Shown here one piece after another: positions 4,774 to 60,299 of a stretch of 64,000 nt of DNA. Made by a program: the position numbers and the translations under genes. Each line of letters starts with the position of its first letter. Position 1 is the stretch's first letter. This DNA comes from Acidimicrobiia bacterium (lineage in GTDB: Bacteria > Actinomycetota > Acidimicrobiia > Spongiisociales > Spongiisociaceae), in contig OY760694.1 of NCBI GenBank assembly GCA_963663955.1, forward strand, positions 2,118,327 to 2,182,326, given 5' to 3'. The notes below the pieces were generated by a model, which saw only the letters and a program-made list of their open reading frames with translations, made no database searches and had not been told where the DNA came from.

Positions 4774-5892
4774 GTGTTTGAGCGTATCTACATTGAGAAC
4801 TACAAGTGCCTGGTCGACTTCGCCCTCCACCTAGACGACACCACGCTACTCCTCGGAGCTAACGGCACAGGCAAGACGGCCGTACTGGATGTGGTGTACG
4901 GCCTCCGCAAGCTGCTTACCGGCGAAGCCAAGGTCGCGGATCCCGTCGCTTTCCCCGCGTCTTCGCTCACTCGTTGGCAAACTCATAGGCACCAGCAGTT
5001 CAGGCTTCGGATTCGGGTGGTTGATGAGTCCTTTACCTACGCCCTCCGGGTGGAGCACGAAGAGGGCGGTTCGAAATCCCGTATAACTCGGGAGAGGCTG
5101 CTCGGGCAGGACAGAACGGTTCTGTTCGATTGTAAGATGGGGGAGGTTCAGCTCTACCGTGATGATGGCTCCACGGGTCCTGCTTTCTTGACGGACTGGC
5201 ATGAATCAGCCTTAGCACGGGTGGTGGAGCATCCCACTAACACGCGACTCACATCCTTTCTTAAAGCTATCCGAAGGACCGTGGTCTGCACTATCCGACC
5301 GGACAGGCTTCGCACCGAGTCGACCCGGGAGGACCCGATCCTGGATCGTGCTGCAACCAACTTTGTGGACTGGTACCGCCACGCCATCCAAGAGAACCCG
5401 AGACGGGCTCTCCCTCATGTAGACGCTCTCCGACCGGTGCTGGATGGTTTCAACGATCTCCAGGTGCGGCAGGCGGGACTAGACAGCAGGGCACTCATGC
5501 TCAGGTTCAGCGCCGACGACGAGAAAACCTACCGCCTTCGTTTCAGCGAGATCGCCGACGGACAGCGGGCACTGGTGGTGCTTTATGGACTAGTTCATCT
5601 GAGCCGCGGCGCCGGAGGCATCGTGTTATTCCTGGATGAACCCGACAACTACGTGGCACTTCCCGAGATCCAGCCATGGCTGCTGGAGTTGGTCGAGTTG
5701 TGTGAGGAAACCCCTTCTCAGGCGGTCATCTGCTCCCACCATCCGGAGTTGATCGACTACTTTGGAATAGCCCGCGGACGAGTACTGCGCCGCAACGCGT
5801 CCGGAGCGGTCACGCCGCACTCTCTTGACCCGCCGCCGGCTGGGAGCAGGCACAAGCTATCGGAATTAGTAGCTCGGGGCTGGGACAATTGA
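4774..5892 (+). CDS. ABC/SMC-type AAA family ATPase (AAA_21/AAA_15-like), copy 1 of a two-gene ATPase + Toprim-like module
   Basis: GTG start; Walker A GANGTGKT near the N-terminus, Walker B-like VLFLDEPDNYV near the C-terminus, SDGQRALV signature-like motif. Stop overlaps the start of the next gene (ATGA). Confidence 0.75.
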   Translation: MFERIYIENYKCLVDFALHLDDTTLLLGANGTGKTAVLDVVYGLRKLLTGEAKVADPVAFPASSLTRWQTHRHQQFRLRIRVVDESFTYALRVEHEEGGSKSRITRERLLGQDRTVLFDCKMGEVQLYRDDGSTGPAFLTDWHESALARVVEHPTNTRLTSFLKAIRRTVVCTIRPDRLRTESTREDPILDRAATNFVDWYRHAIQENPRRALPHVDALRPVLDGFNDLQVRQAGLDSRALMLRFSADDEKTYRLRFSEIADGQRALVVLYGLVHLSRGAGGIVLFLDEPDNYVALPEIQPWLLELVELCEETPSQAVICSHHPELIDYFGIARGRVLRRNASGAVTPHSLDPPPAGSRHKLSELVARGWDN

Positions 5893-6431
5893 GCAGGAAC
5901 GTCCGTATTGTCCTGCTCTGCGAGGATCAGCAGCACGAGGCCTTTGCCAGACGCTTCCTCAAAAGAGGCCCTTGGACCGTGCGAGATCTCAGAGTTGAGC
6001 GGGCACCGTCGGGGCGAGGATCAGCTGAGTACTTCGTACGCGACCGTTTCCCTGACGAACTCCAGTTGGTACGTTCCAAGAGGGGCGAGCAGGCCTACGT
6101 CATCGTAATGGTCGACGGCGACGCCGATGGCGTAGGCAAGCGCAAGGCCTCGCTTGGCACCGCCTGCGAGGAACGGGACGTGGCTCCACCAGGCAGCCGT
6201 GACCATGTGCTTATCTGCGTTCCCACATGGAACATCGAGACGTGGCTGGCATACCTCGGAGGCGAGGGGGTCGATGAAACCAACAAGGGGTATCCCCGAC
6301 TGTCTAGAGCACGGGACTGTGCTCCATTGGTAAACAAGTTGGTCAATATGTGCAACAAGGGAAGCCTGCGTGAGCCAACACCTGCATCGTTGGTGGAAAC
6401 CTGCGTCGACTATCAGCGCGTCTTTGACTAG
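5889..6431 (+). CDS. small Toprim-like protein (DUF4276-like), partner of the ATPase, copy 1
   Basis: 180 aa; N-terminal RIVLLCEDQQHEAF (conserved Glu) and VIVMVDGDADG (DxD), matching Toprim catalytic motifs. Translationally coupled to the upstream ATPase. Confidence 0.6.
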   Translation: MSRNVRIVLLCEDQQHEAFARRFLKRGPWTVRDLRVERAPSGRGSAEYFVRDRFPDELQLVRSKRGEQAYVIVMVDGDADGVGKRKASLGTACEERDVAPPGSRDHVLICVPTWNIETWLAYLGGEGVDETNKGYPRLSRARDCAPLVNKLVNMCNKGSLREPTPASLVETCVDYQRVFD

Positions 6432-6520: not shown

Positions 6521-6705
6521 TTAGCCTCGATTATTCATGGATGGGGGTTTGTAGGCTGAGTGGAGTAGACCATATTCGTGCCCTGACCAGGAAAGACAGC
6601 TATCGGCGTTTCCTATCCCGGAAGGGAACCACTGATGGCGACATTGCCTGTTCAGTGGTCTGATCCATTCATCGCCGAACTCCGATCTCATGAATCGGGG
6701 CTAGC
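6521..6705. repeat. degenerate/chimeric copy (a) of the ~210-bp MITE-like repeat family
   Basis: Starts TTAGCCTCGATTATTCATGG and matches the element in reverse orientation to ~6630, then diverges; ends with a TIR-like CATGAATCGGGGCTAGC. Confidence 0.55.
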
Positions 6706-6708
6706 GTC

Positions 6709-7854
6709 TTGTACATGGTCGGCGCATCCTTCACCCGAGTCCCGGATTATTCGGGAGGATCGCTGAGCAACCTCATGGCCGAGTTGGAGTTGCGCCTCAC
6801 CGGTGCCTGCCCCGGTATTCCCTTGCATTCGGCGCTAGCGGCGGAGATTCCGCCCGCGGCAACCTACTTGCTGGTCTTGATTGACGGCCTCGGCGCCCAC
6901 CAGCTGCACCATCCGGCGGCCGGACCGCTGGCCGACGCTCAGCGTGCAACCATCCACGCCCCGTTCCCGACGACCACCACCGTCAGCCTGGCTACGGTTG
7001 CTACCGCAGAGCCCCCCGGCGAGCACGGATGGGTCGGGCATTTTCTTCTGCCGGCGAATCACCCCAGACCGGTAAATACCCTCCGCTGGGTTGATTCAGC
7101 AGGCCACGCGGTCCACCCTGACGGGCGTGGACTGTTAATCGCCCCGAACCTGTGGGAGAGACTCCGCACATCCGGTATCGAGCCGATCACCGTGCAGCCG
7201 GCCGGTTTCGAGGGAAGCCCACTCACCCGGACGCTCTATAGAGGATGTCGATTCGAAGGAGCAGCGACAACCCGAGAATGGGCCCGTGCTTCCCTGGACT
7301 TGGCGCAGGAGCCGGGGCGGTTGATCTTCAGCTACTACCCGGCGGTCGATATCGCGGCCCACATGAAGGGCCTTAAGAGCCCCGCCTATCGGAACGCCCT
7401 GGCGGATGTAGCCAACGCGTGGGAGCGGATGGCGGCGGGGCTCCCCGGTAACGTCACCATGATCGGTACCGCCGACCACGGGGTAATCCCCGTCACCGCT
7501 AAAGGCAAACATCGCCTGGTGAGTAAACAGACCAGAGGTTTGGAACTGTTCGGGGATCCTCGCTCCCTATACGTGAATGGCCCGCAGGAACTCATCGAGG
7601 AGTTGGCCGCCCGGGTTCCCGCCGAACGGCTCACAAGGTCTGATCTCCGGACTCTATGGGGTTCCGGTTCGGCGGCGGATAACCCTGCTGCCGTCACCCC
7701 GTTCATCGAACCGGACGGCGCATTGCTCGCCCATCAGGGCCGGGTACTGCTGCCGGGCCACATGGACAAACGTTTGGTGGGTTACCACGGCGGGCTGGAT
7801 CCCAGAGAAATCGAGATCCCTCTGCTGGTCACATCACGAGCAGCGTCCGTATAG
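6709..7854 (+). CDS. alkaline phosphatase superfamily protein (type I phosphodiesterase / nucleotide pyrophosphatase-like)
   Basis: 381 aa; LVLIDGLG…TTTTVSLATVATAEPPGEHGWVG…GTADHG…YHGGLDPREIEIPLL motifs typical of AlkP-core metal/nucleophile sites. Confidence 0.65.
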   Translation: MYMVGASFTRVPDYSGGSLSNLMAELELRLTGACPGIPLHSALAAEIPPAATYLLVLIDGLGAHQLHHPAAGPLADAQRATIHAPFPTTTTVSLATVATAEPPGEHGWVGHFLLPANHPRPVNTLRWVDSAGHAVHPDGRGLLIAPNLWERLRTSGIEPITVQPAGFEGSPLTRTLYRGCRFEGAATTREWARASLDLAQEPGRLIFSYYPAVDIAAHMKGLKSPAYRNALADVANAWERMAAGLPGNVTMIGTADHGVIPVTAKGKHRLVSKQTRGLELFGDPRSLYVNGPQELIEELAARVPAERLTRSDLRTLWGSGSAADNPAAVTPFIEPDGALLAHQGRVLLPGHMDKRLVGYHGGLDPREIEIPLLVTSRAASV

Positions 7855-7856
7855 AG

Positions 7857-7951
7857 ATTCACCTGTCGGGTAAACGGTGGGTTTCTCCTGATACTCGGGT
7901 TGAACTGGCGTTACACGCCTCGGTGTGTGGGAAACCTGAATAATCAGGGCC
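7857..7951. repeat. half copy (b) of the MITE-like repeat (one TIR plus ~95 bp)
   Basis: …CTCGGGTTGAACTGGCGTTACACGCCTCGGTGTGTGGGAAACCTGAATAATCAGGGCC matches the reverse-orientation half of the full copies. Sits between convergent gene ends. Confidence 0.6.
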
Positions 7952-7953
7952 AA

Positions 7954-9435
7954 TCACCGGCACAAAGGTTCGTAGCGCAGGTCCAGGTCGGCAAGACGGT
8001 CGAGAAGCATGGAAAGGCCCCGAACGGTCTGGGTTCGGTTGCCACCCCCGTCGTGCATCAAGACAACCGACCCGTAGGTGACCTGTGACACGATCCGGTC
8101 GGCTATCTCTTCACCGGTAAGACCGAGCCAATCGTTAGCGCTGACCGTCCAAAGATGAAGCTCGAGGCCGTATTCGGCAGACCACTCCCGAGTTCGACTA
8201 CCGGTAGCCGCATAGGGGGGTCGCAAGCACGGAGTGGCATGCTCGCCGAGAATCTCCTCCGTCCTGCTTATGGTTTCATCGAACTCCGCCTTGTTAAGGC
8301 CGGCGAGGTTTTCGTGTCGCCATGTGTGGTTGGCGACTGTGTGGCCCTCGGTCACGATCCTCTGGAAGATATCCGGATACTTCTCCACCAGAGATCCGAC
8401 CACGAAGAAGGTAGCTCGCGCGCCGTAACGCGCCAGGAGGTCCAATACTTCCGGTGTGTGTCGGGGATTAGGTCCATCGTCGAAGGTGAGATAGACAACG
8501 TCACCAGGGCCGATCCGCGGTCGGCTCGGGACCTGACGGGTCACCGGCGGCGGCGGGGGAACAGGCTCCGGATCGGGGAATCCGATTCGGATCAATAACT
8601 CGAAATCTGCGGATTGCTCTCCTGAGGGAATCACACTCACGAACAGTTCACCGTCCCGAGTCAACGTGGTCTCCAGCCGTTGAGCTACACCCTGATCCGC
8701 TCGCAGGACTTCGGCCCCGTGACGAACCTCCAGAGTCACCCCCGGGGGAGCGAGGAGAACTGCTTCCAGTTTCTGGTCAACACCTCCTGCCAGCGCGTAT
8801 ACCTGTGACCGGTCGTTGACAGTTCCGAATACCACGGCTTGGATCACTTCGCCATCCACCCGCACGTTGGTATCCGGGCGGTAGGAAGAAGAAATCCGAA
8901 TGTTGGCCGGGACCGCTGATCCTCCGACGGGAGGACCCGGATAGATTGCAACCCGGTCGGGACCGCTCACCGGCTGGACTTCGATCAGGGTTGATTCCAC
9001 CTGATCGGTCCCTTCAGACGAGGGGCCTTCCACAACGCCCGGGTCCGGCGCCGTTACCTCCGCCAACCGCTCGTTAGCTTCGCCCGACGGAAGTGCCGGT
9101 TCAGAGAGGACCGTCGGCTCGTTCCCCGGAGGCTTGATCTGAGGTTGGTTGCCGGCGCCACTCTGTTCCGATGCAGAAGTTGGTTCCGGTAACACGATCG
9201 GCGCCGCCTCGACGGTCTCGTGGAGAACGGACTCGGTTGGACCCTCAGCAAGTCCGGCAATTGGTTCGCCGAGGGTGGGTAACGGGCTGTCGGACGAGTC
9301 GGTGCATGCCGCTAACAGGGCCAGAGCCAACGCGGCTGACACCAACCGACCAATAAAGCGCGGCGTCACGGGTTCGCTCTCCAATCTTTCCAAACCATTG
9401 TCCGGGCTCCGAAGATCTCTGCCATCCGGTATCAA
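7954..9435 (-). CDS. polysaccharide deacetylase (CE4/NodB family) with N-terminal signal peptide or lipoprotein and low-complexity linker
   Basis: C-terminal …VYLTFDDGPNPRHTPEVLDLL…ATFFVVG…ANHTWRHENL… NodB homology motifs. N-terminus hydrophobic with LLAAC lipobox-like sequence. Confidence 0.8.
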   Translation of the reverse strand: MIPDGRDLRSPDNGLERLESEPVTPRFIGRLVSAALALALLAACTDSSDSPLPTLGEPIAGLAEGPTESVLHETVEAAPIVLPEPTSASEQSGAGNQPQIKPPGNEPTVLSEPALPSGEANERLAEVTAPDPGVVEGPSSEGTDQVESTLIEVQPVSGPDRVAIYPGPPVGGSAVPANIRISSSYRPDTNVRVDGEVIQAVVFGTVNDRSQVYALAGGVDQKLEAVLLAPPGVTLEVRHGAEVLRADQGVAQRLETTLTRDGELFVSVIPSGEQSADFELLIRIGFPDPEPVPPPPPVTRQVPSRPRIGPGDVVYLTFDDGPNPRHTPEVLDLLARYGARATFFVVGSLVEKYPDIFQRIVTEGHTVANHTWRHENLAGLNKAEFDETISRTEEILGEHATPCLRPPYAATGSRTREWSAEYGLELHLWTVSANDWLGLTGEEIADRIVSQVTYGSVVLMHDGGGNRTQTVRGLSMLLDRLADLDLRYEPLCR

Positions 9436-16994: not shown

Positions 16995-17190
16995 CCGTCG
17001 CTATCGCCTGACGGTACAGGAAACGACCCGAAACGGCTCGTCTGCCCTAGGGAACCACAACGTCCCCAGGGCAGACGAGCCATCGGAGTATGTGAGCTAC
17101 ATCCTGATTCACACGGCCCTACTATGCCGCCCAATTCAACGCCGTTTACTGACAAGCTCCTGATGGCCAATCACGATGTGCAGATGTACC

Positions 17191-18324
17191 ATGATTTTCG
17201 TGCTGGAACGTATCTATATCAAGAACTACAAGTGCCTAGCGGACTTCAACCTTCAACTGCAAGAGACCACACTTCTTCTTGGGGATAACGGTTCCGGAAA
17301 GACGGCCGTCCTCGATGTGGTTTATGGACTTCGCCAACTCTTGGCAGGAGAAGTCAAGATCACGGACCCTGTAGCGTTCCCTTCTTCCACGCTCACCCGC
17401 TGGCAAACCTGTCAAGAACAGCAGTTCGAACTCCAATTGAGGCTGGAGAGCGAGAGCTTTCTCTATAGGCTCCAAGTCGAACACGATCCCGGCATCGGTG
17501 CTTCCCGTATAACCCGTGAGAAGCTGGTCGGTGAAGACAAGACGGTGTTGTTCGATTGCAATATGGGAGAGGTACAGCTATATCGTGATGATGGTTCGGA
17601 GGGGCCAACCTATAGAACAGACTGGGGCGAGTCCGCCCTGGCACGTGTAGTTGAACAGCCGACCAACACGCGGCTCACCTCCTTCCTGAACGCTGTTCGC
17701 GGCGCAGTGGTCTGTACTGTCCGGCCGCATACCATCCGCTCGGTAGCAGCCCGAGGGGGCCATCGGCTCGGCCGTTACGCCGATAACTTTGTGGGTTGGT
17801 ACCGCAATGCCGTCCTTGATAGTCCAGGGTTGGCTCGATCTCATGAACAAGCCCTACAGGGTGTAATGGACGGTTTTGAAAGTCTTCGCCTTGAGCGGAT
17901 TGGCGTCGACACGCGGGAATTGAGGCTTCGCTTCTCTAGCGTAAACGGCGACCGCAGCGCCGGCAGGTACTGGCTCCGGCTTGATGAGATCTCCGATGGG
18001 CAGCGCGCACTGGTGGTTCTTTACGGATTGCTGCATCTGCACGGTGGGGATGGCGTATTGATGCTGTTGGATGAACCGGATAACTACGTGGCTCTTCCTG
18101 AAATCCAACCCTGGCTGATGGAATTGCTCGAGTTATGTGAGGAGACACCCTCGCAAGCCATTATATGTTCACACCATCCGGAGATAATCGACTTCCTCGG
18201 GCCGGATTATGGATTGATTCTACGCCGTAACGCCTCCGGTAACGCCACCGCGCGGCCGATCAGCCAACCAGCCTTGACGGGCTCCCTCAAGCTGTCCGAG
18301 TTGGCGGCGCGGGGAGACGCGTGA
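17191..18324 (+). CDS. ABC/SMC-type AAA family ATPase, copy 2 (paralog of 4774-5892, ~70% aa identity by eye)
   Basis: …FVLERIYIKNYKCLADF…LLLGDNGSGKTAVLDVVYGL…MLLDEPDNYVALPEIQPW… colinear with copy 1. Start taken at MIFVLERIY by homology; the track ORF begins at 17176. Confidence 0.75.
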   Translation: MIFVLERIYIKNYKCLADFNLQLQETTLLLGDNGSGKTAVLDVVYGLRQLLAGEVKITDPVAFPSSTLTRWQTCQEQQFELQLRLESESFLYRLQVEHDPGIGASRITREKLVGEDKTVLFDCNMGEVQLYRDDGSEGPTYRTDWGESALARVVEQPTNTRLTSFLNAVRGAVVCTVRPHTIRSVAARGGHRLGRYADNFVGWYRNAVLDSPGLARSHEQALQGVMDGFESLRLERIGVDTRELRLRFSSVNGDRSAGRYWLRLDEISDGQRALVVLYGLLHLHGGDGVLMLLDEPDNYVALPEIQPWLMELLELCEETPSQAIICSHHPEIIDFLGPDYGLILRRNASGNATARPISQPALTGSLKLSELAARGDA

Positions 18325-18893
18325 GCAGGAAAATCAGGGTGGTTCTACTCTGCGAAGACAAGCAACACCGTGCCTTCGTTACTCGTTTGATCCATCGGCT
18401 CGGCTGGAAGCCGCGTGATCTCCGAATCGAACAATCGCCCACTGGTCGAGGGTCGGCGGAGCATTACGTACGGAACCGGTTCCCTCGTGAGCTTCAGTGG
18501 CTACGCTCCAAAGGCGGCGAGCGGGTTTACCTGATAGTCATGGTCGATGGAGACGCGGCCGGCGTCTCCAAAAGAAAGGCCTCGCTCAGCGCCGCCTGCC
18601 ACCAACTAGGAGTACCACCACCTGGCGACGCCGACAACGTAGTCATTTGTGTACCGTCCTGGAACATCGAGACATGGCTGGCTTATCTCGAGGGTAAAAC
18701 GGTTGACGAAACCCATGCCCAATACCCCAAAATGGACAGACCCCGCAATTGCCAACCGATGGTCGACCAACTCGTTGAAATGTGCCGCGACCGAGCCCTT
18801 CGTAAGCCGGCCCCTGCATCTCTGGAAGAGGCTTGCACGAGCTACCGCCGCGTGTTCCCCAGCAGAGGTTCCGGATCTACCCACCTCGCCTGA
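18321..18893 (+). CDS. small Toprim-like protein (DUF4276-like), copy 2
   Basis: 190 aa; RVVLLCEDKQHRAF and LIVMVDGDAAG motifs as in copy 1. Start overlaps the ATPase stop (GTGA). Confidence 0.6.
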   Translation: MSRKIRVVLLCEDKQHRAFVTRLIHRLGWKPRDLRIEQSPTGRGSAEHYVRNRFPRELQWLRSKGGERVYLIVMVDGDAAGVSKRKASLSAACHQLGVPPPGDADNVVICVPSWNIETWLAYLEGKTVDETHAQYPKMDRPRNCQPMVDQLVEMCRDRALRKPAPASLEEACTSYRRVFPSRGSGSTHLA

Positions 18894-18958
18894 GAAAGGC
18901 ATCTCAGAACAAAACTGGTCATATGGCGCGTCCCGGAGACCCGCAGCAACCGACCACT

Positions 18959-19165
18959 AGCCCTGATTATTCAGGCTTCCCGCACACCGAGGCATGTAAC
19001 GCCAGTTCAACCCGAGTATTGGGAGAAACCCGCCGTTCACCCGGCAGGTGAATCTCTATACTGGATCGGAATGGGAAACGCCTATAGCTGTATTCCCTGG
19101 TCAGAGTACGAGTATGGTCTACTCCGCTCATCCTTCAAACCCCCGTCCATGAATAATCGGGGCTA
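18959..19165 (+). repeat. full copy (c) of the ~210-bp MITE-like repeat
   Basis: CTAGCCCTGATTATTCAGG…CCATGAATAATCGGGGCTAAC; the termini are inverted repeats of each other. Confidence 0.7.
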
Positions 19166-19211
19166 ACAGGTGTTCTTTGTAGCCTGATGACACACGCGCG
19201 GAGTGGATAGT

Positions 19212-20471: not shown

Positions 20472-21146
20472 TTACCCACTTTTGAGAAACCTCATTCCAA
20501 GGGTGATGCTCCAGAGTACCCAGGGGAAGTAGCAAAGCCTGGCCAGCGTAACCATGCTCTCGCTGGGACCGGTCTGCCCGATGATGAGCGCCACCACGGC
20601 GACGACGGACACTACGAAAATCACTAGGGCGGCGATCTTGTTAAAACCCACCGGATCCCTAAACGACAGACCGAGGCTCAACGCCATTATCCCCAACGAC
20701 ACTGCAAGGCTCGAAATGAAAGTAATACCCGCGCTCGCCTGCTCGACCGGTACCGCCGCCTGGACCGCTACAGCGTCTTCGATCGGGACCTCGGCAAGGA
20801 TGTGAATCAGTCCGTAGGACATGATCCATCCGAACCCACCCACGGTCGCGCTGAGGATACCGAATCGGGATAGGGCGGAGGCGGAGTCATCCTCCACGAG
20901 AACGATCAGCCGGTTGAGACCGGTCAACCCGTAAATCATTATGAGCAGGCCGATTGGAACCATCAGGCCCGCGCCATGGGCTAAGGCGGCGTTGGAAGCC
21001 AGGGCCCGGATCCTCCCGATGGAGTCGGTCGAAACAGCGCTGTCAATCAACATACCGCCCGGTTGGAGTAGGAAGAATAACAGGGCCAGAATCGGCCCTA
21101 TGATCAGCGACCATGCCTCGAACCGGTTGACGGAACCAACCTTCAT
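20472..21146 (-). CDS. polytopic membrane protein (DUF4386-like)
   Basis: 224 aa, ~6 predicted hydrophobic helices; no catalytic motif recognised. Confidence 0.45.
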   Translation of the reverse strand: MKVGSVNRFEAWSLIIGPILALLFFLLQPGGMLIDSAVSTDSIGRIRALASNAALAHGAGLMVPIGLLIMIYGLTGLNRLIVLVEDDSASALSRFGILSATVGGFGWIMSYGLIHILAEVPIEDAVAVQAAVPVEQASAGITFISSLAVSLGIMALSLGLSFRDPVGFNKIAALVIFVVSVVAVVALIIGQTGPSESMVTLARLCYFPWVLWSITLGMRFLKSG

Positions 21147-28284: not shown

Positions 28285-28384
28285 TTGCCTCTTCCCGCTT
28301 CGACCACGTAATGACCACACTTCCGATGCCTGCCGACATATCTCGCCAAGTGAACCTTGTTCATCGGGTTCGACGAAGTTCCCT

Positions 28385-28593
28385 TAACCCTGATTATTCA
28401 GGTTTCCCACACACCGAGGCATGTAACGTCAGTTCCACCCGAGTTTGGGGGCTACCCACCGTTCACCCGACAGGTGAATATCTAGACCGGACCGGGATGG
28501 GAAATACCGATAGCTGTATTGCCTGGTCAGGGTGCGAATATAGCCTACTCCACTCATCCCCCAAACCTCCATCCATGAATAATCGGGGTTAAA
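28385..28593 (+). repeat. full copy (d) of the MITE-like repeat
   Basis: TTAACCCTGATTATTCAGG…CCATGAATAATCGGGGTTAA; perfect 19-bp terminal inverted repeat. Confidence 0.7.
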
Positions 28594-31449: not shown

Positions 31450-31902
31450 ATGCACCTGGTTAGAACCCGACCCTTCCGACTCAATCATGATGTCGAGACG
31501 CTTCTCGAAGTGTTGCCGCTACCGGCGGCGCCCGGTTTCGGTGTCCGGGAGACTCGCCGGACCCGGCGGCCGTGGTCGCCGCGCGTCGACGTGATCGAGA
31601 CCGATGAGGCTCTTGTTACCCGGTATGAACTCGCCGGATTCCGGCTAGAGGACCTGGAGGTCACCCTCGACAACAACCTGCTAACGGTGAAGGGAACTCG
31701 TTCATCGGAGGCTCCGGAGGGAGCCGTTTATCGAGTCCGTGAACTCGCCGATGGCTCCTTCTCCCGCTCAATCCGGATCTCGGATGACTTCGATCCCGAC
31801 GGTGTGGTGGCCGAATTCTCAAATGGAATTCTCGAGGTTGTGGTTCCGAAGCGCCCACAGGTACAGACGAGAACCGTTCAGATCAGGACAGGAGGTAACT
31901 AG
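31450..31902 (+). CDS. Hsp20/alpha-crystallin family small heat-shock protein
   Basis: 150 aa; alpha-crystallin domain with …FSRSIRISDDFDPDGVVAEFSNGILEVVVPK… C-terminal consensus. Confidence 0.8.
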   Translation: MHLVRTRPFRLNHDVETLLEVLPLPAAPGFGVRETRRTRRPWSPRVDVIETDEALVTRYELAGFRLEDLEVTLDNNLLTVKGTRSSEAPEGAVYRVRELADGSFSRSIRISDDFDPDGVVAEFSNGILEVVVPKRPQVQTRTVQIRTGGN

Positions 31903-31953
31903 CCCTGATTATTCAGGTTTCCCACAGACCGACGCATGGAACGCCGGTTCAAC

Positions 31954-32920
31954 ATAAGAGCGTCCGCGGGTAGGGGTTAGTTGAGGTTCCAGCGGTCTCG
32001 CCATTTGATGAGTTTGATGGTGATGATGAGGGTGATGGCTAGGTTGAGTTGGGCGTGTCGGTGGTGGGTGTTTCGGTCGGTGTTGCGGCGGAGTTGCCCG
32101 TAGTTGGTGAGCCATGAGTTGGTTCGTTCGACGGTCCAGCGCATACCGAGGGGTGCGGGTGTTTTGGTGTTGCCGGTTTGGCCTCGTGGTTTTTTCTTGG
32201 CGCATATGACGTCGGTTATGCCGGCGGCGTCGCAGAGGGCGCGCACGGTTTTGCTGTCGTAGCCTCGGTCGAGGTGGAGGGTTTCTATGTCGGGGAGCAA
32301 TCCCCGCCGGTCGACAGCTTCGAGGGTGGGCTGGAATAGGATGCTGTCGTGGCGGTTGGCCCCGTTTGTGGCCCAACCGATCGGTATGCCGTTGCGGTCT
32401 ACGGCGAGGGACCATTTCCACCCGGATTTGGCCCGGTCGCAGGGGTTTTTCCCGGTTCCTTCCCCCCCGGAGGGCGCTTTGTGTTGGCTACCGTCGACCG
32501 AGACCTCGGATAGGTCCAACCCGATCACACGGTCGTAGGCGGCTACGGCTTCTGCTTCGAGGTTCTCGAAGACGCCTGCTTTCGTCCATTCATCGCGTCG
32601 GGCCCGCAGAGTCGTGTCCGACACCTCTTTGTTCAAGAGTTGTTCGGCTGTTTCCCACGAGCAGCCGGTCACTAACCGGATCAGTATCCCCTGGAAGCAG
32701 ACACGGTCGGGTTTGCGGGGATTGTGACAGCCCAGGGGATGGTTGTCCTCCCGGGCGGGCAACAGACCCTTTGTGGCTTTCCACACCGCGTTTGCTACTT
32801 CGGGGTCGAGTGCGCGCATAATGAACCTCCACCAGTTGGGGGATTTGTGTTGCACTCGGTATGAAACCCGAGACAACCCCTCAACTGGTGGATTTCCACC
32901 TACCCGCGGACGCTCTAAGT
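31954..32920 (-). mobile_element. IS5-family (IS427/IS1031-group-like) insertion sequence, ~0.96 kb, inserted into a MITE copy
   Basis: Terminal inverted repeats AGAGCGTCCGCGGGTAGG (31957-31974) and CCTACCCGCGGACGCTCT (32899-32916). Flanking TAAG on both sides is a possible target-site duplication. Confidence 0.7.
31977..32876 (-). CDS. IS5-family DDE transposase
   Basis: 299 aa; …FQGILIRLVTGCSWETAEQLL…RRDEWTKAGVFENL… typical IS427-like N-terminus, DDE region downstream. Confidence 0.7.
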   Translation of the reverse strand: MSRVSYRVQHKSPNWWRFIMRALDPEVANAVWKATKGLLPAREDNHPLGCHNPRKPDRVCFQGILIRLVTGCSWETAEQLLNKEVSDTTLRARRDEWTKAGVFENLEAEAVAAYDRVIGLDLSEVSVDGSQHKAPSGGEGTGKNPCDRAKSGWKWSLAVDRNGIPIGWATNGANRHDSILFQPTLEAVDRRGLLPDIETLHLDRGYDSKTVRALCDAAGITDVICAKKKPRGQTGNTKTPAPLGMRWTVERTNSWLTNYGQLRRNTDRNTHHRHAQLNLAITLIITIKLIKWRDRWNLN

Positions 32921-33332
32921 ATCAGGATAAATCCCGCCTTCACCCGCGGGTGACCCTCCAACACCGGCCCGGGATGGGAAACACCGATAGCTGTATTGCC
33001 TGGTCAGGGGTGTGATTACGGCGTAATCGGCTCATCTGTCAAACCCCCATCCATGAATAATCGGGGCTAACACTTTCCAGTACCAGCCGGACCGCTGTGG
33101 ATGGCACAGCCCACCCCTCCTCTCCTCCATCCACAGTCCGGCCTCCCGTTCCGGCGCACCCTCCCGGCGCCGGAACGGGAACTCCCTTTTCGTTGTGTTC
33201 AATCCTGAATGTGTTCGGGAATCCCGTGAAAAACGCATAACGAGGCCACCTTGCACGGTGAACGGCGCAGGGCCTTATTCCGGTAGTCGGTGAAACCCTA
33301 CGCTTTTCTTGATGGCTGGGACCACGCCCTAC

Positions 33333-42981: not shown

Positions 42982-44859
42982 TCACTCCCACTTGTCAGAG
43001 TTAGGCCCCGGCCAGATGCGTGATACGACCTTGGCTAGCTGCTCTCCGCGCGTTCGTATCGCTTGCTCGTTCCAATCGGTTTCCTGACACAGCCGCGCGT
43101 TTAGACGCAAGTGTGAGTGCTTCATAAGTTCGCGCCGTTTGTCGTTCCAGGGTGCGTTGCTCAGTGCCGGATTCAATCGGCTGCTAACCAGTGTGAGGTT
43201 CCCGATGCGGTGCAAGTGGTCGGACCGCTCCTTCTCCAGAACGATCTTTTTACCCTGATCCGAAGTCTCGACCGGCCAATGTGCTTGCCAGCTCTTTGGG
43301 AGCACATGCTCGATTTGCAGCGAGTCATAGTCAATGGACTTAAGCGGTTCTCCCTTGTGGTAGTCGTCGTGCTGGAATCGGTCGTCGACCGCGCCCAAGA
43401 GTAGTCGGAGTCGATACTGGGCGATTCCTCCGTATCCGTAGTAGGCGGAGCTTCGGAACTGCTCGACCAATTGCGCGTCCGTTGGCCATGGGTATCCATG
43501 TGGCCCTTGGCGAAGTGCCTCCACGATAGCTAACCCCGGATGGGCTCCCGCTCCTTTAGCGGCTCGGAGCACGTCGGCGAAGGCTTGGCCGTAGGCGCGT
43601 GTCTGAGCCTTAATCGCCATACGCCGAATGACGAAGGACTCTATGGCTTGGAACGCCAACTCCCTCTCCCCTGGTAGCAGCACCTCTTCGGATCGAGTCA
43701 GAAGCCACAGGAGCACGGGAGTGGCCACCGTTACGTTGAGACGATCAATTCGTTGAAACGACAGACGCTCGTTGACTGTTGCGCCTTCCATTCGCCCGTG
43801 GAGCCGCTCGTACGCATCCGCGTAGCGGTCCAGTTCGCGCAGAGCGTCGACAGCGGTTGTGCCACTGGAATGCAACCAACTTCGGAACTCACCGTACAGG
43901 CGACCGACGTTGATGACGCGACCACGCTGAGCGATCAGCCAGTCTCCCATCAGCCAGTCCTGTCTTGCCCTGCGAGCGTGACCAGCCCCGACAGGCTTTC
44001 GCCACCAATCATCGGCATTGTCAAACCGAGCCCAGACCTCATCGTATAGTTTCTGGGGATCGTGGCCTTTGGTTTGAGCGCGCATGAAAAGTAGGTTCTT
44101 TACCAGGTCCGTCGCTGATAGCGGCGTGTTGCGGGCGTTCAGCGCCTCGAAGATAACTTGCGCGTCGTCGACATCCTCCAGATCGATTACTACAAGCTTG
44201 ACGAGCACCAGCAACGTGGCCACGAGAAGCGACGCGCGACGCTGTACCGCGTCCCCGTCCGCATATGGATCCTCGTGGACTCTCTCGTCCTCCAGAAAGC
44301 CGCTCACTTGACTGAAGAAAAAGTGGCGCGCTTCAGCGAAGACCGAATCATCTGGAGGTGGCGGTTCTGCCCCCACTGCACTCCGATAACGTTCGGACTC
44401 CGCTTGCCGAGGCCAGACTTTGTGCACATCGTCGCCCGACCAGATCTCTTGGTCATTGATAGTCAGCTTGCGTAGTTGTGCCAGTTGAAGCTTGGTGATG
44501 GCTGCGGTCCGCAGAGCATCAAGCGTCCCCATCAGAAGAAGTTGCAGCGTAACGAGGCGTTGCTGACCGTCCACTACCAGCCTAGTCTTGATATCCAATG
44601 GGCCTGTGGGGTACGGCTCCACGACGATGGCACCCAAAAAGTGCGGTGCTGCCCTTGCATCTGCAGTAGACGCAGGCTTTCCGGCACTATGCGACTCCTG
44701 TCGCGTCTCTGCCAAGCGCAGGGCGGTTGACTCCACGTCTTCCCAGAGGGGTTCCCACTGCAGCTCGCGCTTCCAGACATAGGGGCGCTGGTACGTGGGT
44801 ATGACGAAACGCCGGTCGCCCTGAAGCACCTCTTGCAGCGTGTTCGTGTCAGCTTTCAT
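42982..44859 (-). CDS. GmrSD-family type IV (modification-dependent) restriction endonuclease-like protein (DUF262 + DUF1524)
   Basis: 625 aa; N-terminal ParB-like DUF262 motifs FVIPTYQRPYVW and DGQQRL; C-terminal HNH-like DUF1524 region …LQIEHVLPKS…HRIGNLTLV…. Confidence 0.75.
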   Translation of the reverse strand: MKADTNTLQEVLQGDRRFVIPTYQRPYVWKRELQWEPLWEDVESTALRLAETRQESHSAGKPASTADARAAPHFLGAIVVEPYPTGPLDIKTRLVVDGQQRLVTLQLLLMGTLDALRTAAITKLQLAQLRKLTINDQEIWSGDDVHKVWPRQAESERYRSAVGAEPPPPDDSVFAEARHFFFSQVSGFLEDERVHEDPYADGDAVQRRASLLVATLLVLVKLVVIDLEDVDDAQVIFEALNARNTPLSATDLVKNLLFMRAQTKGHDPQKLYDEVWARFDNADDWWRKPVGAGHARRARQDWLMGDWLIAQRGRVINVGRLYGEFRSWLHSSGTTAVDALRELDRYADAYERLHGRMEGATVNERLSFQRIDRLNVTVATPVLLWLLTRSEEVLLPGERELAFQAIESFVIRRMAIKAQTRAYGQAFADVLRAAKGAGAHPGLAIVEALRQGPHGYPWPTDAQLVEQFRSSAYYGYGGIAQYRLRLLLGAVDDRFQHDDYHKGEPLKSIDYDSLQIEHVLPKSWQAHWPVETSDQGKKIVLEKERSDHLHRIGNLTLVSSRLNPALSNAPWNDKRRELMKHSHLRLNARLCQETDWNEQAIRTRGEQLAKVVSRIWPGPNSDKWE

Positions 44860-45112
44860 TCATAGAGCCGGTGGCAACGAGACAGCATGTGGTCGGGGTC
44901 ACGGGAGGATCCGTTTCTTGGGAGCGGACAAGGCCGAGTTTAACAAAACGAACAGCAGACGTGTGGATACCCGCTAGGTGATGATTCGGGTTCTAGGAGC
45001 GCCAATGCCACGGCGGAACAAGCCCACAGCATCGTGACATACGGACTGCTATGCCAAGGTAGAAGCTCTTGGCAACCGGTAGACTGAATATGTATGAAAG
45101 ACGAGGCGAACA

Positions 45113-45532
45113 ATGACGGACTGGGGAACCTGTCCCGCTGTTGAGAGTGTGCCCGGAAGGCTTGGAGGAACCTGGGTGTTCACCGGAACGAGAGTGCCCG
45201 TATCAAGCCTGTTCGGAAACCTTGCGGAAGGCGCCACCGTCAGTAACTTTTTGGAGTGGTTCCCTGGCGTGGAGGAATGGCAGGTTCGATCCGTGCTGGA
45301 GCATGAGGTGACGTCTCTTGATGCGAAGGTGAGGTATGAGGTACCTGTTTTGACCACGGAAACCGCCCGGAAATCATCACACTTGTCGACCTGCACAACT
45401 TGTCCAACCCCACCAAGAAACCAATCCGCGCACCCTCTAAGACTTAGGAGTTACGGTTGGTCCGAATCATCGTCCTCGAGTGCGCTGCTTATAGAAGGCC
45501 CAACTGCCAAACGGCACCGCCCTCAAGTGTAG
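45113..45532 (+). CDS. DUF433 domain protein (TA-antitoxin-like small domain) with an uncertain low-complexity C-terminal extension
   Basis: N-terminal ~75 aa …PGRLGGTWVFTGTRVPVSSLFGNLAEGATVSNFLEWFPGVEEWQVRSVLEH matches the DUF433 pattern (…G.P.I.GTR.PV..I…G.S.EEI…P.L…). Confidence 0.45.
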   Translation: MTDWGTCPAVESVPGRLGGTWVFTGTRVPVSSLFGNLAEGATVSNFLEWFPGVEEWQVRSVLEHEVTSLDAKVRYEVPVLTTETARKSSHLSTCTTCPTPPRNQSAHPLRLRSYGWSESSSSSALLIEGPTAKRHRPQV

Positions 45533-45540
45533 GTTCCGGA

Positions 45541-46077
45541 TCAACATGGGCTGTTGTTCTTTCGGAGACCGGACGTAGACCCAGATTTAGGATACTTCTG
45601 GTCGCGGCGTCGAATCGCCCCTTCTACCCACTGGGCTAGTACATACCCTTTCGATGGATACGGATGATACGAAGCATAGCCGACTTCCGAGTTGTTGACG
45701 TATCGTCTGTTCCGACCCAACCTCCCTGGTAGTTTTATGTTATTCCTTCCGTTCACAGATGGGAGTTGGACAGCAAGTAATCCCCCGCGCGGGTCCGTAG
45801 GATTGTTTCGTAGTGTCGCCGCGATTTCCCAATCCACATATTTTCGAGCCCATGTACATTTTCCGATCAAGGCAATTGTCACCGACGTTCCGGAAATGTA
45901 CTTTTCTCGAATCCTTCTCAGAATATATTCCGCATTGTTACTGTTTATAAAGTCATCATCACCGGAAATACCAATTACACGTATCTGATTGAAAGATTTA
46001 CGGAAACAGGATACAAACCCGTCTACTTCTCTTTGGTCGGCGTGGTGGTAGGTTAGAAAAACGTTTCGCTTGACCAT
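45541..46077 (-). CDS. ThsB-like TIR-domain protein (TIR-like DUF1863 type); markedly low-GC gene
   Basis: …RNVFLTYHHADQREVDGFV…VTIALIGKCTWARKYVDWEIAATL… matches the ThsB/TIR-like pattern (F.SYhh.D…V..VLIG..T..R.WV.YEI). GC by eye ~48% against ~65% surroundings. Confidence 0.65.
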   Translation of the reverse strand: MVKRNVFLTYHHADQREVDGFVSCFRKSFNQIRVIGISGDDDFINSNNAEYILRRIREKYISGTSVTIALIGKCTWARKYVDWEIAATLRNNPTDPRGGLLAVQLPSVNGRNNIKLPGRLGRNRRYVNNSEVGYASYHPYPSKGYVLAQWVEGAIRRRDQKYPKSGSTSGLRKNNSPC

Positions 46078-46208
46078 TGTGGCCCCTTTCGGCCGTTGCA
46101 CTGCATATCGATATGCCTACTGATCAAGTTCAAGACAGTACCACCTTGTGCGAGACAATCCCATAGTTACAACCGAGCGTAACTTCCAGAAGGAGGTAAG
46201 GTGAATTC

Positions 46209-47444
46209 GTGCTTCCTCCAATCCTTGAGATCTACGTAGTCTGGCATCCGGACGACCGCGAGGGTCAGCGGATTAGCCGATGGCTGCTAGAACACTTCCA
46301 TGGGACGCCTTACCAGGGCCTGATCGGCGGGGCGGTGGAGGTGTACTCCCGTTCAGCCCCTTGGGGGCCGGGCTCGGACGCCCCAAGACCTCTGCCATTT
46401 CAAAGACCCCTACCCTATCAACTGGCCCAGGCGCGTGTGACGGCCATCGTGCCGGTTCTGGGTGCGGGCCTTGCACGAGCGGTCGAGGAGGAATCGTCGG
46501 GCTGGCGCGGATACCTAGCGAGCATGAGCACAGTCGTCAACGCGTCGGATGAACGGATCGGAGTATTCCCCGTGCGCCTGTGTGGAACGGTGGATGGGGA
46601 TCTAGATCAGTTGATGGGAAGACTTCAAGCCTTGGATCCTAAGAGTACAGAAGACCGCGCGGTCCTGTGTCGAGAATTGTCACAGGCAGTTGCCCAGCTG
46701 ATAGGCGACCCATTCGGCAATCGACTAACGGTATTCATCAGCCACACCAAGCGGCACTCCCTCGCAGAAGAACCGGACGACGTCGATAACCTAATAGCCC
46801 GGATCCGGGATACAATCGCGAACACCCGCCTTCGAGCCTACTTCGACACTGCTGATCTGCAACTCGGGTCAGACTGGGACCAAGAACTTCGCTCGAACGC
46901 CGCGTCAAGTGCGCTCCTCGCCGTTCGTACCGATCTGTACGCCAGCAGGGAGTGGTGCCAGCGAGAGTTCCTAATCGCGAAGCGATCTGGAATGCCGATC
47001 GTCACCCTCAGCGCGATTCGTCGCGCCGAGGAACGCGGCTCCTTCATTATGGATCATGTCCCGAGCGTTGGCTACCGGCAACCTGAAGCGGAGGCGGCCA
47101 CCTCTGTCATCAAGGTAGCGTTGAATATGCTCGTCGATGGTGCACTCAGTCGGGCTCTATGGTTAGTTCAGGAGGATATGATGCAAGGTATGGGGATTGA
47201 CTGGGCACCACCGCAGGCACCTGAGCCGGTAACCCTTCTACCTTGGCTCCTTGACAATCGTTACCGGTTCGCAAAAGATGGCCCTATAGTGATTATGCAT
47301 CCCGATCCACCTCTTGGACCGGAGGAATCGAGCGTGATTGCCGAGCTTCTCGCGTTGGCAGGGGTCGCCGATGTAATTGACATCGTTACTCCGCGTACCT
47401 TGGCGAGCCGCGTCACTCAGGACATCTTGTGGCCACCGAACTGA
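46209..47444 (+). CDS. protein with two TIR-like domains in tandem (degenerate N-terminal + clearer C-terminal TIR)
   Basis: C-terminal half …TVFISHTKRHS…YFDTADLQLGSDWDQEL…ALLAVRTDLYASREWCQREFLIA… TIR-like; N-terminal half begins LEIYVVWHPDD…. 3' end overlaps the next gene by 16 nt. Confidence 0.55.
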   Translation: MLPPILEIYVVWHPDDREGQRISRWLLEHFHGTPYQGLIGGAVEVYSRSAPWGPGSDAPRPLPFQRPLPYQLAQARVTAIVPVLGAGLARAVEEESSGWRGYLASMSTVVNASDERIGVFPVRLCGTVDGDLDQLMGRLQALDPKSTEDRAVLCRELSQAVAQLIGDPFGNRLTVFISHTKRHSLAEEPDDVDNLIARIRDTIANTRLRAYFDTADLQLGSDWDQELRSNAASSALLAVRTDLYASREWCQREFLIAKRSGMPIVTLSAIRRAEERGSFIMDHVPSVGYRQPEAEAATSVIKVALNMLVDGALSRALWLVQEDMMQGMGIDWAPPQAPEPVTLLPWLLDNRYRFAKDGPIVIMHPDPPLGPEESSVIAELLALAGVADVIDIVTPRTLASRVTQDILWPPN

Positions 47445-48280
47445 TCCCGCGGAACGCACTTCAAGGATTCCGCGTCGGCCTCTCAGTGTCCGACAGCGAT
47501 GACCTCGAACGGCTTGGACTATCACAAGCACATGCGGAGCTAGCCGTAGGTGAACTGGCCAGAGCTGTGCTAGTCGCAGGAGGCAGTCTGGTTTATGGAG
47601 GACGAATTAAGCCCTCGGGCTTCACGCAAATCCTAATGCACGAGGTTCATCGCTATGGCGATGGACAGAACATAATAACTCTTTGCCTTGCTGCACCTGA
47701 ACACCGCAAGCTCTCCCGACGTGAACTAGATGACTTAGGCCAAGAGCTGGGTACAGAAGGTCGCTTAGTTTGCCTAGATGAGACAGGACGTGAAATACAC
47801 GGGATACTGAGTTCGAAAGCTAAGGATCCTGATCCCATTCCCGAAGATGAAGCAAGGCGATCCTACAGTTCGTTACGACGCTACATGAGGACCATTACAG
47901 ATGCTCGAGTTCTCATTGGTGGCAAGCTATCAGGCTTTAAGGGATCAATACCGGGAATTATCGAAGAAGCGATCGTCACAATCGAGAAACGGCAGCCTCT
48001 CTATGTGTCAGCAGGTTTCGGAGGAGCTGCTGCATTGGTTGCACAGCAACTCGACATTGATGACTTGAGTTGGGCACCCCCGGATTTTCCAACATATCCC
48101 ACCGAGGATAAGCGGATTGAACAGGCGCTCGAAAGCCTTGACACGGTAGCCTTATCCTCCATGTGGAGCGCCAGTTCTCTAGGACTCGACAGGCGAGCCC
48201 TCCACCGACTCGCAGCTTCACATCGGGCGAGCGAGATCGCATCACTAGTAGTTGTGGGCCTATCTCGATTGACACGATAA
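47429..48280 (+). CDS. SLOG/LOG-family (Rossmann-like, 'Lonely guy'-fold) protein, TIR-associated
   Basis: 283 aa; …VLVAGGSLVYGGRIKPSGFTQILMHEV… (LOG GGxGxMG-like) and …GFKGSIPGIIEEAIVT… (PGGxGTxEE-like). Co-operonic with the tandem-TIR gene. Confidence 0.5.
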   Translation: MATELIPRNALQGFRVGLSVSDSDDLERLGLSQAHAELAVGELARAVLVAGGSLVYGGRIKPSGFTQILMHEVHRYGDGQNIITLCLAAPEHRKLSRRELDDLGQELGTEGRLVCLDETGREIHGILSSKAKDPDPIPEDEARRSYSSLRRYMRTITDARVLIGGKLSGFKGSIPGIIEEAIVTIEKRQPLYVSAGFGGAAALVAQQLDIDDLSWAPPDFPTYPTEDKRIEQALESLDTVALSSMWSASSLGLDRRALHRLAASHRASEIASLVVVGLSRLTR

Positions 48281-48640: not shown

Positions 48641-48696
48641 AGCTATAGCGGTATGGGACCCCCGCGCGCGCCTCCCCGCCAAACGCCAACGGTCGG

Positions 48697-49050
48697 CTAT
48701 TCGTGTTCCTGGTCCCGCTCGTAGCGATGCAGTGCCACCATGAACATCGTGAACAGGATCGCGGAGGCTACGGTGAAGGCACCGGGGATTATCCGGATCT
48801 CGAAGGCGTTCAACCCCTCGAAATCGACCGGGCGAGGTCCCCGGGGAGCGTATAACACGAACAGAACCGAGTTGATGGTGGTCCAGCCGAAGATGCCGGC
48901 GCCTGATACCAGAATGGCCAAACGCTTACCGAGGTTGGTGTATTGCAACAGGTAGACACTGCCGAAGAATACGAGAACTGCGGCCAGCGTCAGAACAATC
49001 CCCGTAAACAGCAGGTTCTGCGATAGAAGAGCCCGAAACAGCTCGCGCAC
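48697..49050 (-). CDS. small membrane protein (3 predicted TM helices), last gene of the cytochrome bc operon
   Basis: 117 aa hydrophobic ORF whose start abuts the cytochrome c gene stop. Confidence 0.45.
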   Translation of the reverse strand: MRELFRALLSQNLLFTGIVLTLAAVLVFFGSVYLLQYTNLGKRLAILVSGAGIFGWTTINSVLFVLYAPRGPRPVDFEGLNAFEIRIIPGAFTVASAILFTMFMVALHRYERDQEHE

Positions 49051-50513: not shown

Positions 50514-50516
50514 CCG

Positions 50517-51413
50517 CTATGCCTCCTCATCGGTGGTAGTCAGGGCGATACAGGATGGACCCTGCGGGTATTGGACTGTCTTGGCGATCGCCCGCGCCGT
50601 CTGGAAGATGGTCCCCGTCTTGACGATGAACCGCCCGTTCTCCTCGAAGACCTCGAAGCGATCCAGGTTGCGCGGCGCCGGACCCGCCTCGTACTCACCG
50701 GCGAAGTTGTATTTGGAACCGTGGCAAGGACATTCGAACCCTTGAGAGGTCTCGCACCAAGGAACCCGGCATCCGAGATGGACGCAGCGTTGGAAGAGGG
50801 CGCTGAGCCCCCCGACCACGACCGGCATCCCATCGAACTGGGAGCGTGAGATGTCCGACTCGGCGAAGGGAATTATGTAGGCCCGGGCCTCCGGCACGAA
50901 CTTGGGGAGTATGGATCCGTCGTTGAGGATCACTTCGGCCTGAATGTCGGCCACCGCGCCTACGTCTATGTCTGAACCGAAACCACCCGAAAGGCGCGGC
51001 CAGAGAAACGCCAGGTAGGAAATGCCGTTGAGCCCTAGGAATGCCCCGAAAGTGATACCGAGGGCGCGGGTGAAGAACTGGCGACGGTTGACGCCCGCTT
51101 CCTGGGGGGACAATTCCTCGACCCGCATGACCTCGACGGTCCGGACCGGGGCGGGTTCCTCGGGTTCAGGAGTCTCGGCAGGGGTCTCGTCGATTTCGGG
51201 CGCCTTTGGTTCCTCCTCCGGAGGACGGGTCACCACCGGCGACGGAATACCGGAACGGTCTGCCCGGCGTGTCTCTCGGGATAGGCCTGATCTCCATGAT
51301 CTCGAGGGTTTGGAAACGTCACCGGAACGCCTGAAAGCGATCACGAAAGCGCCCAGCACCCCGATCATCACCACCGCAGCGATCGCGACGATCAATAGTT
51401 GCAGGGTCGTCAT
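50517..51413 (-). CDS. qcrA: Rieske [2Fe-2S] iron-sulfur subunit (QcrA-like)
   Basis: CVHLGCRVPW…CPCHGSKY Rieske boxes; N-terminal TM helix and Pro/Glu-rich linker. Confidence 0.85.
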   Translation of the reverse strand: MTTLQLLIVAIAAVVMIGVLGAFVIAFRRSGDVSKPSRSWRSGLSRETRRADRSGIPSPVVTRPPEEEPKAPEIDETPAETPEPEEPAPVRTVEVMRVEELSPQEAGVNRRQFFTRALGITFGAFLGLNGISYLAFLWPRLSGGFGSDIDVGAVADIQAEVILNDGSILPKFVPEARAYIIPFAESDISRSQFDGMPVVVGGLSALFQRCVHLGCRVPWCETSQGFECPCHGSKYNFAGEYEAGPAPRNLDRFEVFEENGRFIVKTGTIFQTARAIAKTVQYPQGPSCIALTTTDEEA

Positions 51414-52294: not shown

Positions 52295-52310
52295 CGGTCC
52301 TCAACAGTCC

Positions 52311-53084: not shown

Positions 53085-53092
53085 TACCTCCG

Positions 53093-54322: not shown

Positions 54323-54497
54323 CAGGTTATTTCGTCTCCATACGTTTCGGCTCGGTCCCCCACCCCTGACCGTGGCGACACCCTGCTGGACGCCGACAGA
54401 CCGGAGGCGGGCCTGGATTCGAGTTTAGTGGATACCATTGAAACACAAAGGCGGGCGCTCGCTAAACCAAGATGGAGGTCGCAGCGAGTAGATTCCC

Positions 54498-54712: not shown

Positions 54713-54883
54713 TCGGGTGACTATCCGGTTCAGATCGGGTCAGGTTCACCGCCGGGGGGAATGGAGGGCGCCGACTATCGTCAGCGCGTGGAGCGGCCTG
54801 ATGAGCTTCGGTGTGTGGGGAACGGGAAGAATCGGGGCTAGTCTACCCTTTGCAAGCAGTAAGCAACCCGGGGAGAATCGGTT

Positions 54884-60298: not shown

Positions 60299-60299
60299 A

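Follow-up and report, generated by a model that had tools for sequence, protein, structure and literature searches.

The 64-kb window analyzed here, that is, the whole stretch of Acidimicrobiia DNA under study (G+C content of approximately 60%), carries a family of short noncoding repeats that lie outside the called genes and contain no open reading frame of note. The original prediction described them as a MITE family with at least 7 copies, and the terminal 18-mer of the repeat (TAGCCCTGATTATTCAGG) was matched in the window with up to three mismatches allowed and 100 shuffled sequences as the control. In total, 12 occurrences were found compared with 0.00 expected, and the matches paired as inverted termini at the predicted positions. 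The four intact copies aligned over approximately 205 bp with a mean column identity of 86%, and the similarity ended exactly at the termini, with no relatedness among the copies in their flanks. A profile built from these four copies was then searched over the window with nhmmer and recovered 4 fragments and 5 full copies, of which one is interrupted by an unrelated IS of the IS5 family (Table 1); the same repeat families were recovered by an independent repeat search of the window. Thus, the repeat family is real, with all four of the full copies originally predicted among those recovered by the profile, while the pairwise identity among copies (78 to 88%) differed from the 85 to 90% that had been given for the interior.

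The copies were found on both strands and in convergent, divergent, and co-directional gene contexts. Copy 1 lies between the convergent ends of a 190-aa ORF and a QueG-like gene, copy 2 has the stop codon of an H+-PPase gene on one side and the start of a histidine-phosphatase gene on the other, copy 4 is upstream of a COX1-like gene, and copy 5 sits between divergent SAM-hydrolase and UPF0259-like genes. The predicted intergenic placement held for all nine full copies in the window and in the two loci of a relative described below (L096 and L103). Additionally, the window contains two paralogous two-gene modules (4774-6431 and 17176-18893) that are approximately 80% identical over 133 nt, each consisting of an ABC-type ATPase matching the PADLOC HEC-01A/AriA-like models and a 180- to 190-aa partner; the partner proteins gave no family match. 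A low-GC (approximately 55%) cluster of defense-type genes (GmrSD, DUF433, ThsB-like TIR, TIR_2, and SLOG) was observed at 42982-48280, and the counterpart of the 40.7- to 48.7-kb region in the relative is smaller by approximately 3.5 kb and has a MITE copy (L103b) at its border.

The core of the MITE measures 192 to 206 bp, and its termini (15 to 21 nt) read CCCKGATTATTCAGG(CTTCCC) on the left and CCCCGATTATTCATGG on the right. The inverted repeat that had been estimated at approximately 19 bp is present, but only 15 nt of it (CCCTGATTATTCAGG versus CCCCGATTATTCATG) form the inverted repeat proper, the rest being the duplicated TA and a single variable base; this 15-nt repeat is imperfect, with one wobble (T:G) and one mismatch. 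A 13-bp terminal helix was formed in 9 of the 9 aligned copies. Two copies start with TAACCC and end with GGGTTA instead of the TAGCCC and GGGCTA ascribed to all.

Table 1. Positions, flanks, and verified targets of the MITE copies and of the IS nested in copy 3. Positions refer to the window unless a locus of the relative is named.
Feature	Position	Strand	Left flank	Right flank	Verified target	Details	Basis
Right-half fragment	6521-6621	-				model positions 210 to 110; 88% identical to copy 5	
Older degenerate right-half fragment	6618-6704	+				model positions 111-209; nhmmer E=2.1e-7	
Left-half fragment	7847-7952	-				model positions 2-107	profile search
MITE copy 1	18957-19166	+	CTAG	CTAA	CTAA	core 18961-19162	profile search, alignment
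MITE copy 2	28384-28592	+	TTAA	TTAA	TTAA	core 28388-28588	profile search, alignment
MITE copy 3, left part	31899-31957	+	CTAG		CTAA	model positions 2-56	profile search
Nested IS5-family IS	31958-32915	-				958 bp; 299-aa transposase at 31977-32876; NF033580 E=2.7e-46	
MITE copy 3, right part	32916-33070	+		CTAA	CTAA	model positions 58-210; ends CGGGG-CTAA	profile search
MITE copy 4	54499-54712	+	CTAG	CTAA	CTAA		profile search, alignment
Degenerate left-half remnant	54722-54841	-				nhmmer E=3.6e-4; inverted repeat I1	
MITE copy 5	59389-59598	-	TTAA	TTAT		flanks in canonical orientation	profile search, alignment
Relative's own copy	L096 19230-19429		CTAG	TTAA	CTAA		

The profile search refined the limits of the partial copies. 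The half copy predicted at 7857-7951 proved to be a left half with slightly wider limits, and it ends beside the stop codon of a polysaccharide-deacetylase gene. Element sequence is also present at 6521-6705, where one degenerate copy had been proposed, but it really comprises two right halves: a fragment on the minus strand abuts, head to head, an older fragment on the plus strand whose terminal repeat lacks AAT. All three of these fragments break in the middle of the element, at model positions 107 to 111, and the young left half lies 1.2 kb from the pair of right halves, beyond a phosphodiesterase-like gene (6709-7854); breakage in mid-element or template switching is suspected behind them. 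The remaining fragment, a degenerate left half, was absent from the original list. It is inverted and lies 10 bp from copy 4, so that a younger copy landed beside an old one, as in the IS1380 dimers described below, and since it is also found in the relative (L103 14400-14517), this remnant is older than the split of the two genomes.

The disrupted copy predicted at 31899-33070 is indeed split by an IS. This 958-bp IS5-family element has inverted repeats GAGCGTCCGCGGGTAGG and is flanked by a TAA duplication (31955-31957 and 32916-32918), and the pre-insertion sequence of its site, taken from an uninterrupted paralogue in the relative (L103b), is CAACATAAGTATCAGG. The nested IS5 is unrelated to the mobilization of the MITE itself.

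The window was compared with a relative through two loci, L096 and L103, which were reached via homologues of the window pyrophosphatase and SAM hydrolase and which belong to one circular-looking ENA contig (ERZ25069711:ctg17310; 4,016,103 bp). Synteny extended over approximately 37.6 kb (window 18445-40696 and 48676-64000), with nucleotide identities of 89.5 to 98.3% per block and approximately 96% overall. Copies 1, 2, 3 (with its nested IS5), and 4 were missing from the relative exactly at the element boundaries: the empty sites read ACCA-CTAA-CAGG for copy 1 and TCCC-TTAA-AGTG for copy 2 in L096 and CCCG-CTAA-TCGG for copy 4 in L103, and the stretch 31902-33066, comprising copy 3 and the IS5, was wholly absent from L096. 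The relative has a copy of its own in L096, at a point where the window is uninterrupted (21283/21284), and copy 5 has an orthologue with the same flanks and 100% (rounded) identity at L103 9645-9852. Altogether, 4 of the 6 comparable sites were occupied in the window only, 1 in the relative only, and 1 in both. Two further copies of the relative, L103a and L103b (20566-20773), fall outside the comparable stretch and are 94% identical to copy 1 and 96% identical to copy 3 (L103b being without the IS5), respectively, and the relative has 4 copies in 43 kb. An outgroup polarizes gain versus precise loss for copy 2 only: the H+-PPase/phosphatase intergenic region contains no MITE in the more distant relatives L097 and L100, and copy 2 is therefore a gain in the lineage of the window. 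L095, a contig assembled from short reads of the window's own strain, terminates within a MITE copy on either side, as expected of a high-copy-number repeat.

These exact presence/absence differences between genomes that are approximately 96% identical demonstrate that the element is mobile and has moved recently. They also bear on the possibility that the copies lack mobility of their own and are left over from segmental duplication or recombination. In its favor, both paralogous ATPase gene pairs have a MITE copy or a fragment after them. However, the flanks of the copies are unrelated, copy 1 is missing in the relative although the adjoining gene pair is present there, and the boundaries are exact, with YTAR targets and a TA duplication at five sites. 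The exact empty sites in the relative thus rule out segmental duplication, and we consider relics of this kind extremely improbable. The original prediction had itself named segmental duplication and a lack of conserved termini as outcomes that would speak against it, and both are contradicted by the flanks, the empty sites, and the conserved ends.

Analysis of the target-site duplication, which had been proposed as a check, was possible on five occupied/empty pairs. The five verified empty sites were CTAA (four times) and TTAA (once), all of them YTAR, and since only 258 of the 1,940 TA dinucleotides in the window (13%) fall within YTAR, the target is specific. TA was duplicated on both sides of the element at all five sites. 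A plain 4-bp target duplication is not enough to describe the junctions, since it fails at four of the five verified sites, while a 3-bp (YTA) duplication fits five of six copies; the duplication may be 2, 3, or 4 bp long, with TA as the only constant part. TA is separated from the CCC/GGG core by one base that is independent of the target, most often G/C and sometimes A/T. Thus, a duplicated TA plus one nontarget base on each side of the CCC...GGG core fits all of the junctions. Elements of the IS1380 family, to which we return below, are usually quoted with a plain direct repeat of 4 to 5 bp; identical flanking 4-mers were seen at copy 2 and at the loci L104, L109, L110, L116, L120, L021, and L143, but the four CTAA targets had CTAG/CTAA or CTAG/TTAA as their flank pairs.

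Copy 3 entered the stop codon of an HSP20 gene, which is TAA in the relative and was rebuilt as TAG in the window. At the empty site of this copy (L096, approximately 8955-8975), the relative reads CTAACTAA, which has four bases beyond the single CTAA predicted and could be the result of a 4-bp slippage or an excision footprint.

A full-length IS with the same inverted repeats had been put forward as the parent to look for, and such ISs were found in other Acidimicrobiia and in metagenomes. They are 1.68 to 1.83 kb long and share 13 to 21 terminal nucleotides with the MITE. In each full-length element that carried these termini, they sat exactly at the ends, and the sole transposase encoded was of the IS1380 family. 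To judge from these sequences, the MITE termini are the exact ends of full-length ISs with IS1380 transposases, belonging to at least four independent IS lineages. The clearest examples are the 1.68-kb ISs of "Ca. Poriferisodalis" (L021 and L102), with the structure CTAG-CCCTGATTATTCAcG...CATGAATAATCAGGG-CTAG and a sole ORF of 449 aa that matches NF033539 (IS1380 family; E=2.6e-75) and Pfam DDE_Tnp_1_4. In another MAG, this terminus is seen at two contig ends (L003 and L051), with the start of the transposase coming after it, and L120 carries a frameshifted IS1380 element (NF033539 E=1.2e-57) whose left end matches that of the MITE at 20 of 21 nt. A further IS1380 element, in L143, has related ends and CTAG on both flanks. 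The P0237-type IS1380 elements (L128 to L134), whose ends are also related, occupy seven sites, with 1,682-bp cores that differ at 0 to 2 positions and with variable flanks (left, CTAG or TTAG; right, CTAG, CTAA, or TTAA); the right-hand base next to the core is C five times and T twice. The pairing of left and right flanks in this set was discarded as evidence, since these are short-read repeat contigs, two of which share a right flank, and chimeras are likely. Head-to-tail IS1380 dimers joined by a single CTAG were also observed in "Ca. Poriferisodalis" (L021 3683-7053 and L102 1-2765), which suggests either insertion beside an existing end or a tandem transposition intermediate.

The distribution of the termini extends further. 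The scan of genome contigs used a 17-mer with three degenerate positions and returned mostly chance matches, the Acidimicrobiia loci being the informative ones among the matches listed. A metagenome scan with the 21-nt left end gave no match, and one with the right end gave 24 loci of 34 to 68% G+C, at 17 of which the outer and inner flank bases were palindromic (TTAA or CTAG). Among these 24 loci were L120 and four mini-elements of 45 to 135 bp, on metagenomic contigs with G+C contents of 36 to 63%, that have the same termini but otherwise unrelated sequences and are flanked on both sides by TTAA (L104 354-495, L109 570-674, and L110 681-759) or CTAG (L116 251-302). On this evidence, the IS1380 subgroup has spawned MITEs in several distant hosts, and the termini are the signature of a widespread subgroup that does so repeatedly.

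The duplication of TA also invites another reading, in which the repeat is an IS630/Tc1-mariner-type MITE that duplicates TA at NTAN and is moved by an IS630-family transposase. In its favor, no dinucleotide except TA was duplicated at every one of the five verified sites, and an IS630-type (DDE_3) gene is present in the co-resident genome L143. However, the DDE_3 element of L143, which begins immediately beyond the IS1380 end, opens with another sequence, no IS630-family IS bounded by inverted repeats of the CCCYGATTATTCAKG type was seen, and the full-length elements that carry the MITE termini exactly at their ends encode IS1380-family transposases. We consider an IS630-type origin very improbable.

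Several results weigh against mobilization by an IS1380-family enzyme. Searching the 64-kb window with tblastn revealed no gene for an IS1380 transposase, and none of the top 120 homologues of the query transposase lay on the contig of the relative; P0140 sits on a different circular contig from the same sample as the relative. The copies also diverge from one another by 12 to 22%. The similarity between the MITE and the sampled ISs is gone after the 13 to 21 terminal nucleotides, with subterminal z-scores of -1.9 to 1.5. A simple internal-deletion derivative of a sampled IS was rejected because there is no subterminal homology, and a closer parent IS may lie outside the sampled set. A search of the plasmid collection gave no match to the MITE, and no report of this family, or of any IS1380-derived MITE, was found in the searchable literature, a scope distinct from ISfinder and Dfam; within it, nothing contradicted the original label of the family as previously undescribed.

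The strong conservation of the repeats had raised the alternative that they are a functional structured RNA or a REP/BIME-like module acting in termination or mRNA stability, with the fold under selection and the spread of the copies secondary. Single copies were indeed more stable than shuffled sequences (z = -3.6 on either strand), mostly via the terminal repeat, and in the nine copies, 9 predicted pairs showed double changes compared with 3.9 in shuffles (0 of 500 shuffles reached 9), a count that was also above slid controls. A few internal blocks also survive in L085, a 57 to 64% identical copy from another species. However, the double-change test is inflated because its structure came from the very sequences being counted, and some of the double changes, several in number, are common to a single lineage. 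RNAalifold gave a covariation term of +1.23 on the nine copies, so that the alignment provided no net support for covariation, and the only long helix was the invariant terminal repeat. No Rfam 15 match was obtained, either for the whole window at the gathering score or for copy 1 at an E value of up to 1, and no promoter-like or terminator-like site was found. Additionally, copies of either orientation occur, all types of gene context are represented, and near-identical genomes differ at comparable sites (4 of 6 being occupied in the window only), which is unexpected for a regulator that is needed. The fold signals are weak evidence and point to small local hairpins, not to a functional RNA, and we regard the structured-RNA alternative as very improbable. 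The MITE also differs from REP/BIME elements, which are imperfect palindromes of approximately 20 to 40 nt, often clustered, linked to RAYT (TnpA-REP), and without target duplication, in that its unit measures approximately 205 bp and has inverted termini, TA is duplicated, and the copies are single and not in arrays.

Mobilization in trans, as originally predicted, is supported by both the exact-boundary polymorphism against the relative and the existence of full-length IS1380-family ISs with the same inverted repeats. Because exact ends are shared by at least four IS lineages, the best explanation is mobilization in trans by an IS1380-family transposase, and we consider it highly probable that the repeat is a nonautonomous IS1380-type MITE moved into YTAR by a DDE transposase of the IS1380 family that is produced from another place in the genome. 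In this model, the MITE (approximately 202 bp, with imperfect 15-nt inverted repeats), which encodes nothing itself, would depend on transposase supplied in trans. An IS1380-family DDE transposase would recognize the termini common to the MITE and the ISs, and the element would be cut out and then pasted into a YTAR tetranucleotide, leaving the central TA on both sides, in a cut-and-paste reaction that would proceed through DNA hairpins on the element ends. We infer the mobilizing family from terminal sequences, and an active transposase copy is presumably present in the window's own genome. The hairpin reaction is likewise a proposal, made because the predicted fold of the transposase resembles the Tn5 and piggyBac transposases. 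The AlphaFold model of the IS1380 transposase (pLDDT 77) had Tn5 transposase as its best structural match (E=2e-7; TM 0.5), followed by piggyBat (E=3e-4) and piggyBac (E=2e-3), while a sequence profile of the transposase found no relative among solved structures. The Tn5, piggyBat, and piggyBac transposases all act via hairpins on the transposon ends. Effects on neighboring genes, such as the rebuilt stop codon of the HSP20 gene, are a by-product of insertion.

With respect to known systems, the repeat adds a new IS1380-type MITE family, from uncultured Acidimicrobiia, to a kind of element that is already known. It resembles other IS-derived bacterial MITEs (Correia elements and IS630- and IS5-derived MITEs) in its size of approximately 200 bp, its lack of coding capacity, its IS-like termini, and its short target duplication, as well as in its many dispersed intergenic copies, nested insertions, and copy number differences between strains; it differs from them in that the partner is IS1380 and that the interior is unrelated to the sampled ISs. 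The IS1380 family proper (NF033539; DDE_Tnp_1_4) has termini that likewise start with CC and the same 13 to 21 terminal nucleotides, whereas the MITE carries no transposase and its flanks are not a plain repeat of 4 to 5 bp, with a YTAR target in which only TA is constant. IS5 elements target YTAR, and IS630 elements insert at CTAG and duplicate TA. The MITE thus has a target like that of IS5 and a TA duplication within CTAG like that of IS630, but the transposase family and the terminal repeats are different.

The IS1380 family is regarded as the prokaryotic counterpart of the eukaryotic piggyBac elements (PMC5718144; bioRxiv 10.1101/2021.09.26.461848). Elements of the piggyBac type end in CCC/GGG and insert at TTAA. 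Several features of the MITE are in line with this view: the termini are of the CCC...GGG form, TTAA is present on both flanks of copy 2 and of the low-GC mini-elements in L104, L109, and L110, and the empty sites are without a footprint, excision being indistinguishable from noninsertion there. Once the hairpins have been opened, 4 nt of the donor flank remain attached to the 5' ends of piggyBac (PMC7351741), and such carriage could explain MITE junction bases that do not match the target. The differences are that the MITE uses CTAG and CTAA besides TTAA, with TTAA at only one of the five verified sites and CTAA and CTAG predominating here, and that the model of the IS1380 transposase is closest to Tn5 and has no cysteine-rich domain. 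The odd junction bases may be either the element's own or flank nucleotides carried from the previous site. Under carry-over, the base beside the CCC/GGG core would derive from the previous site and not from the new target. If true, this would account for the CTAG left junctions at four CTAA targets, for the CTAA-target copy whose left and right flanks are CTAG and TTAA, respectively, and for the differing flank bases of the near-identical 1,682-bp IS copies, and it would predict excision free of footprints. That the IS1380 branch and its MITEs are the bacterial counterpart of piggyBac in mechanism too, with TA-centered targets and hairpin excision carrying flank nucleotides, is a possible but doubtful extension of the preferred IS1380 explanation.

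With roughly one copy per 10 to 13 kb, the MITE breaks short-read assemblies of Acidimicrobiia, of which L095 is an example, and in genome annotation the repeat should be masked and cataloged. Its turnover is fast, since 5 of the 6 comparable sites differ between genomes that are approximately 96% identical, and because the copies land at gene ends, in promoters, and once in a stop codon, it probably contributes to differences in regulation between strains. The natural pairs of occupied and empty sites are a resource for the IS1380 transposase family, which has barely been studied. Overall, the targeting of TTAA, CTAG, and CTAA together with junction bases that are independent of the target is the part most worth pursuing, and both features make the relationship between IS1380 and piggyBac testable.
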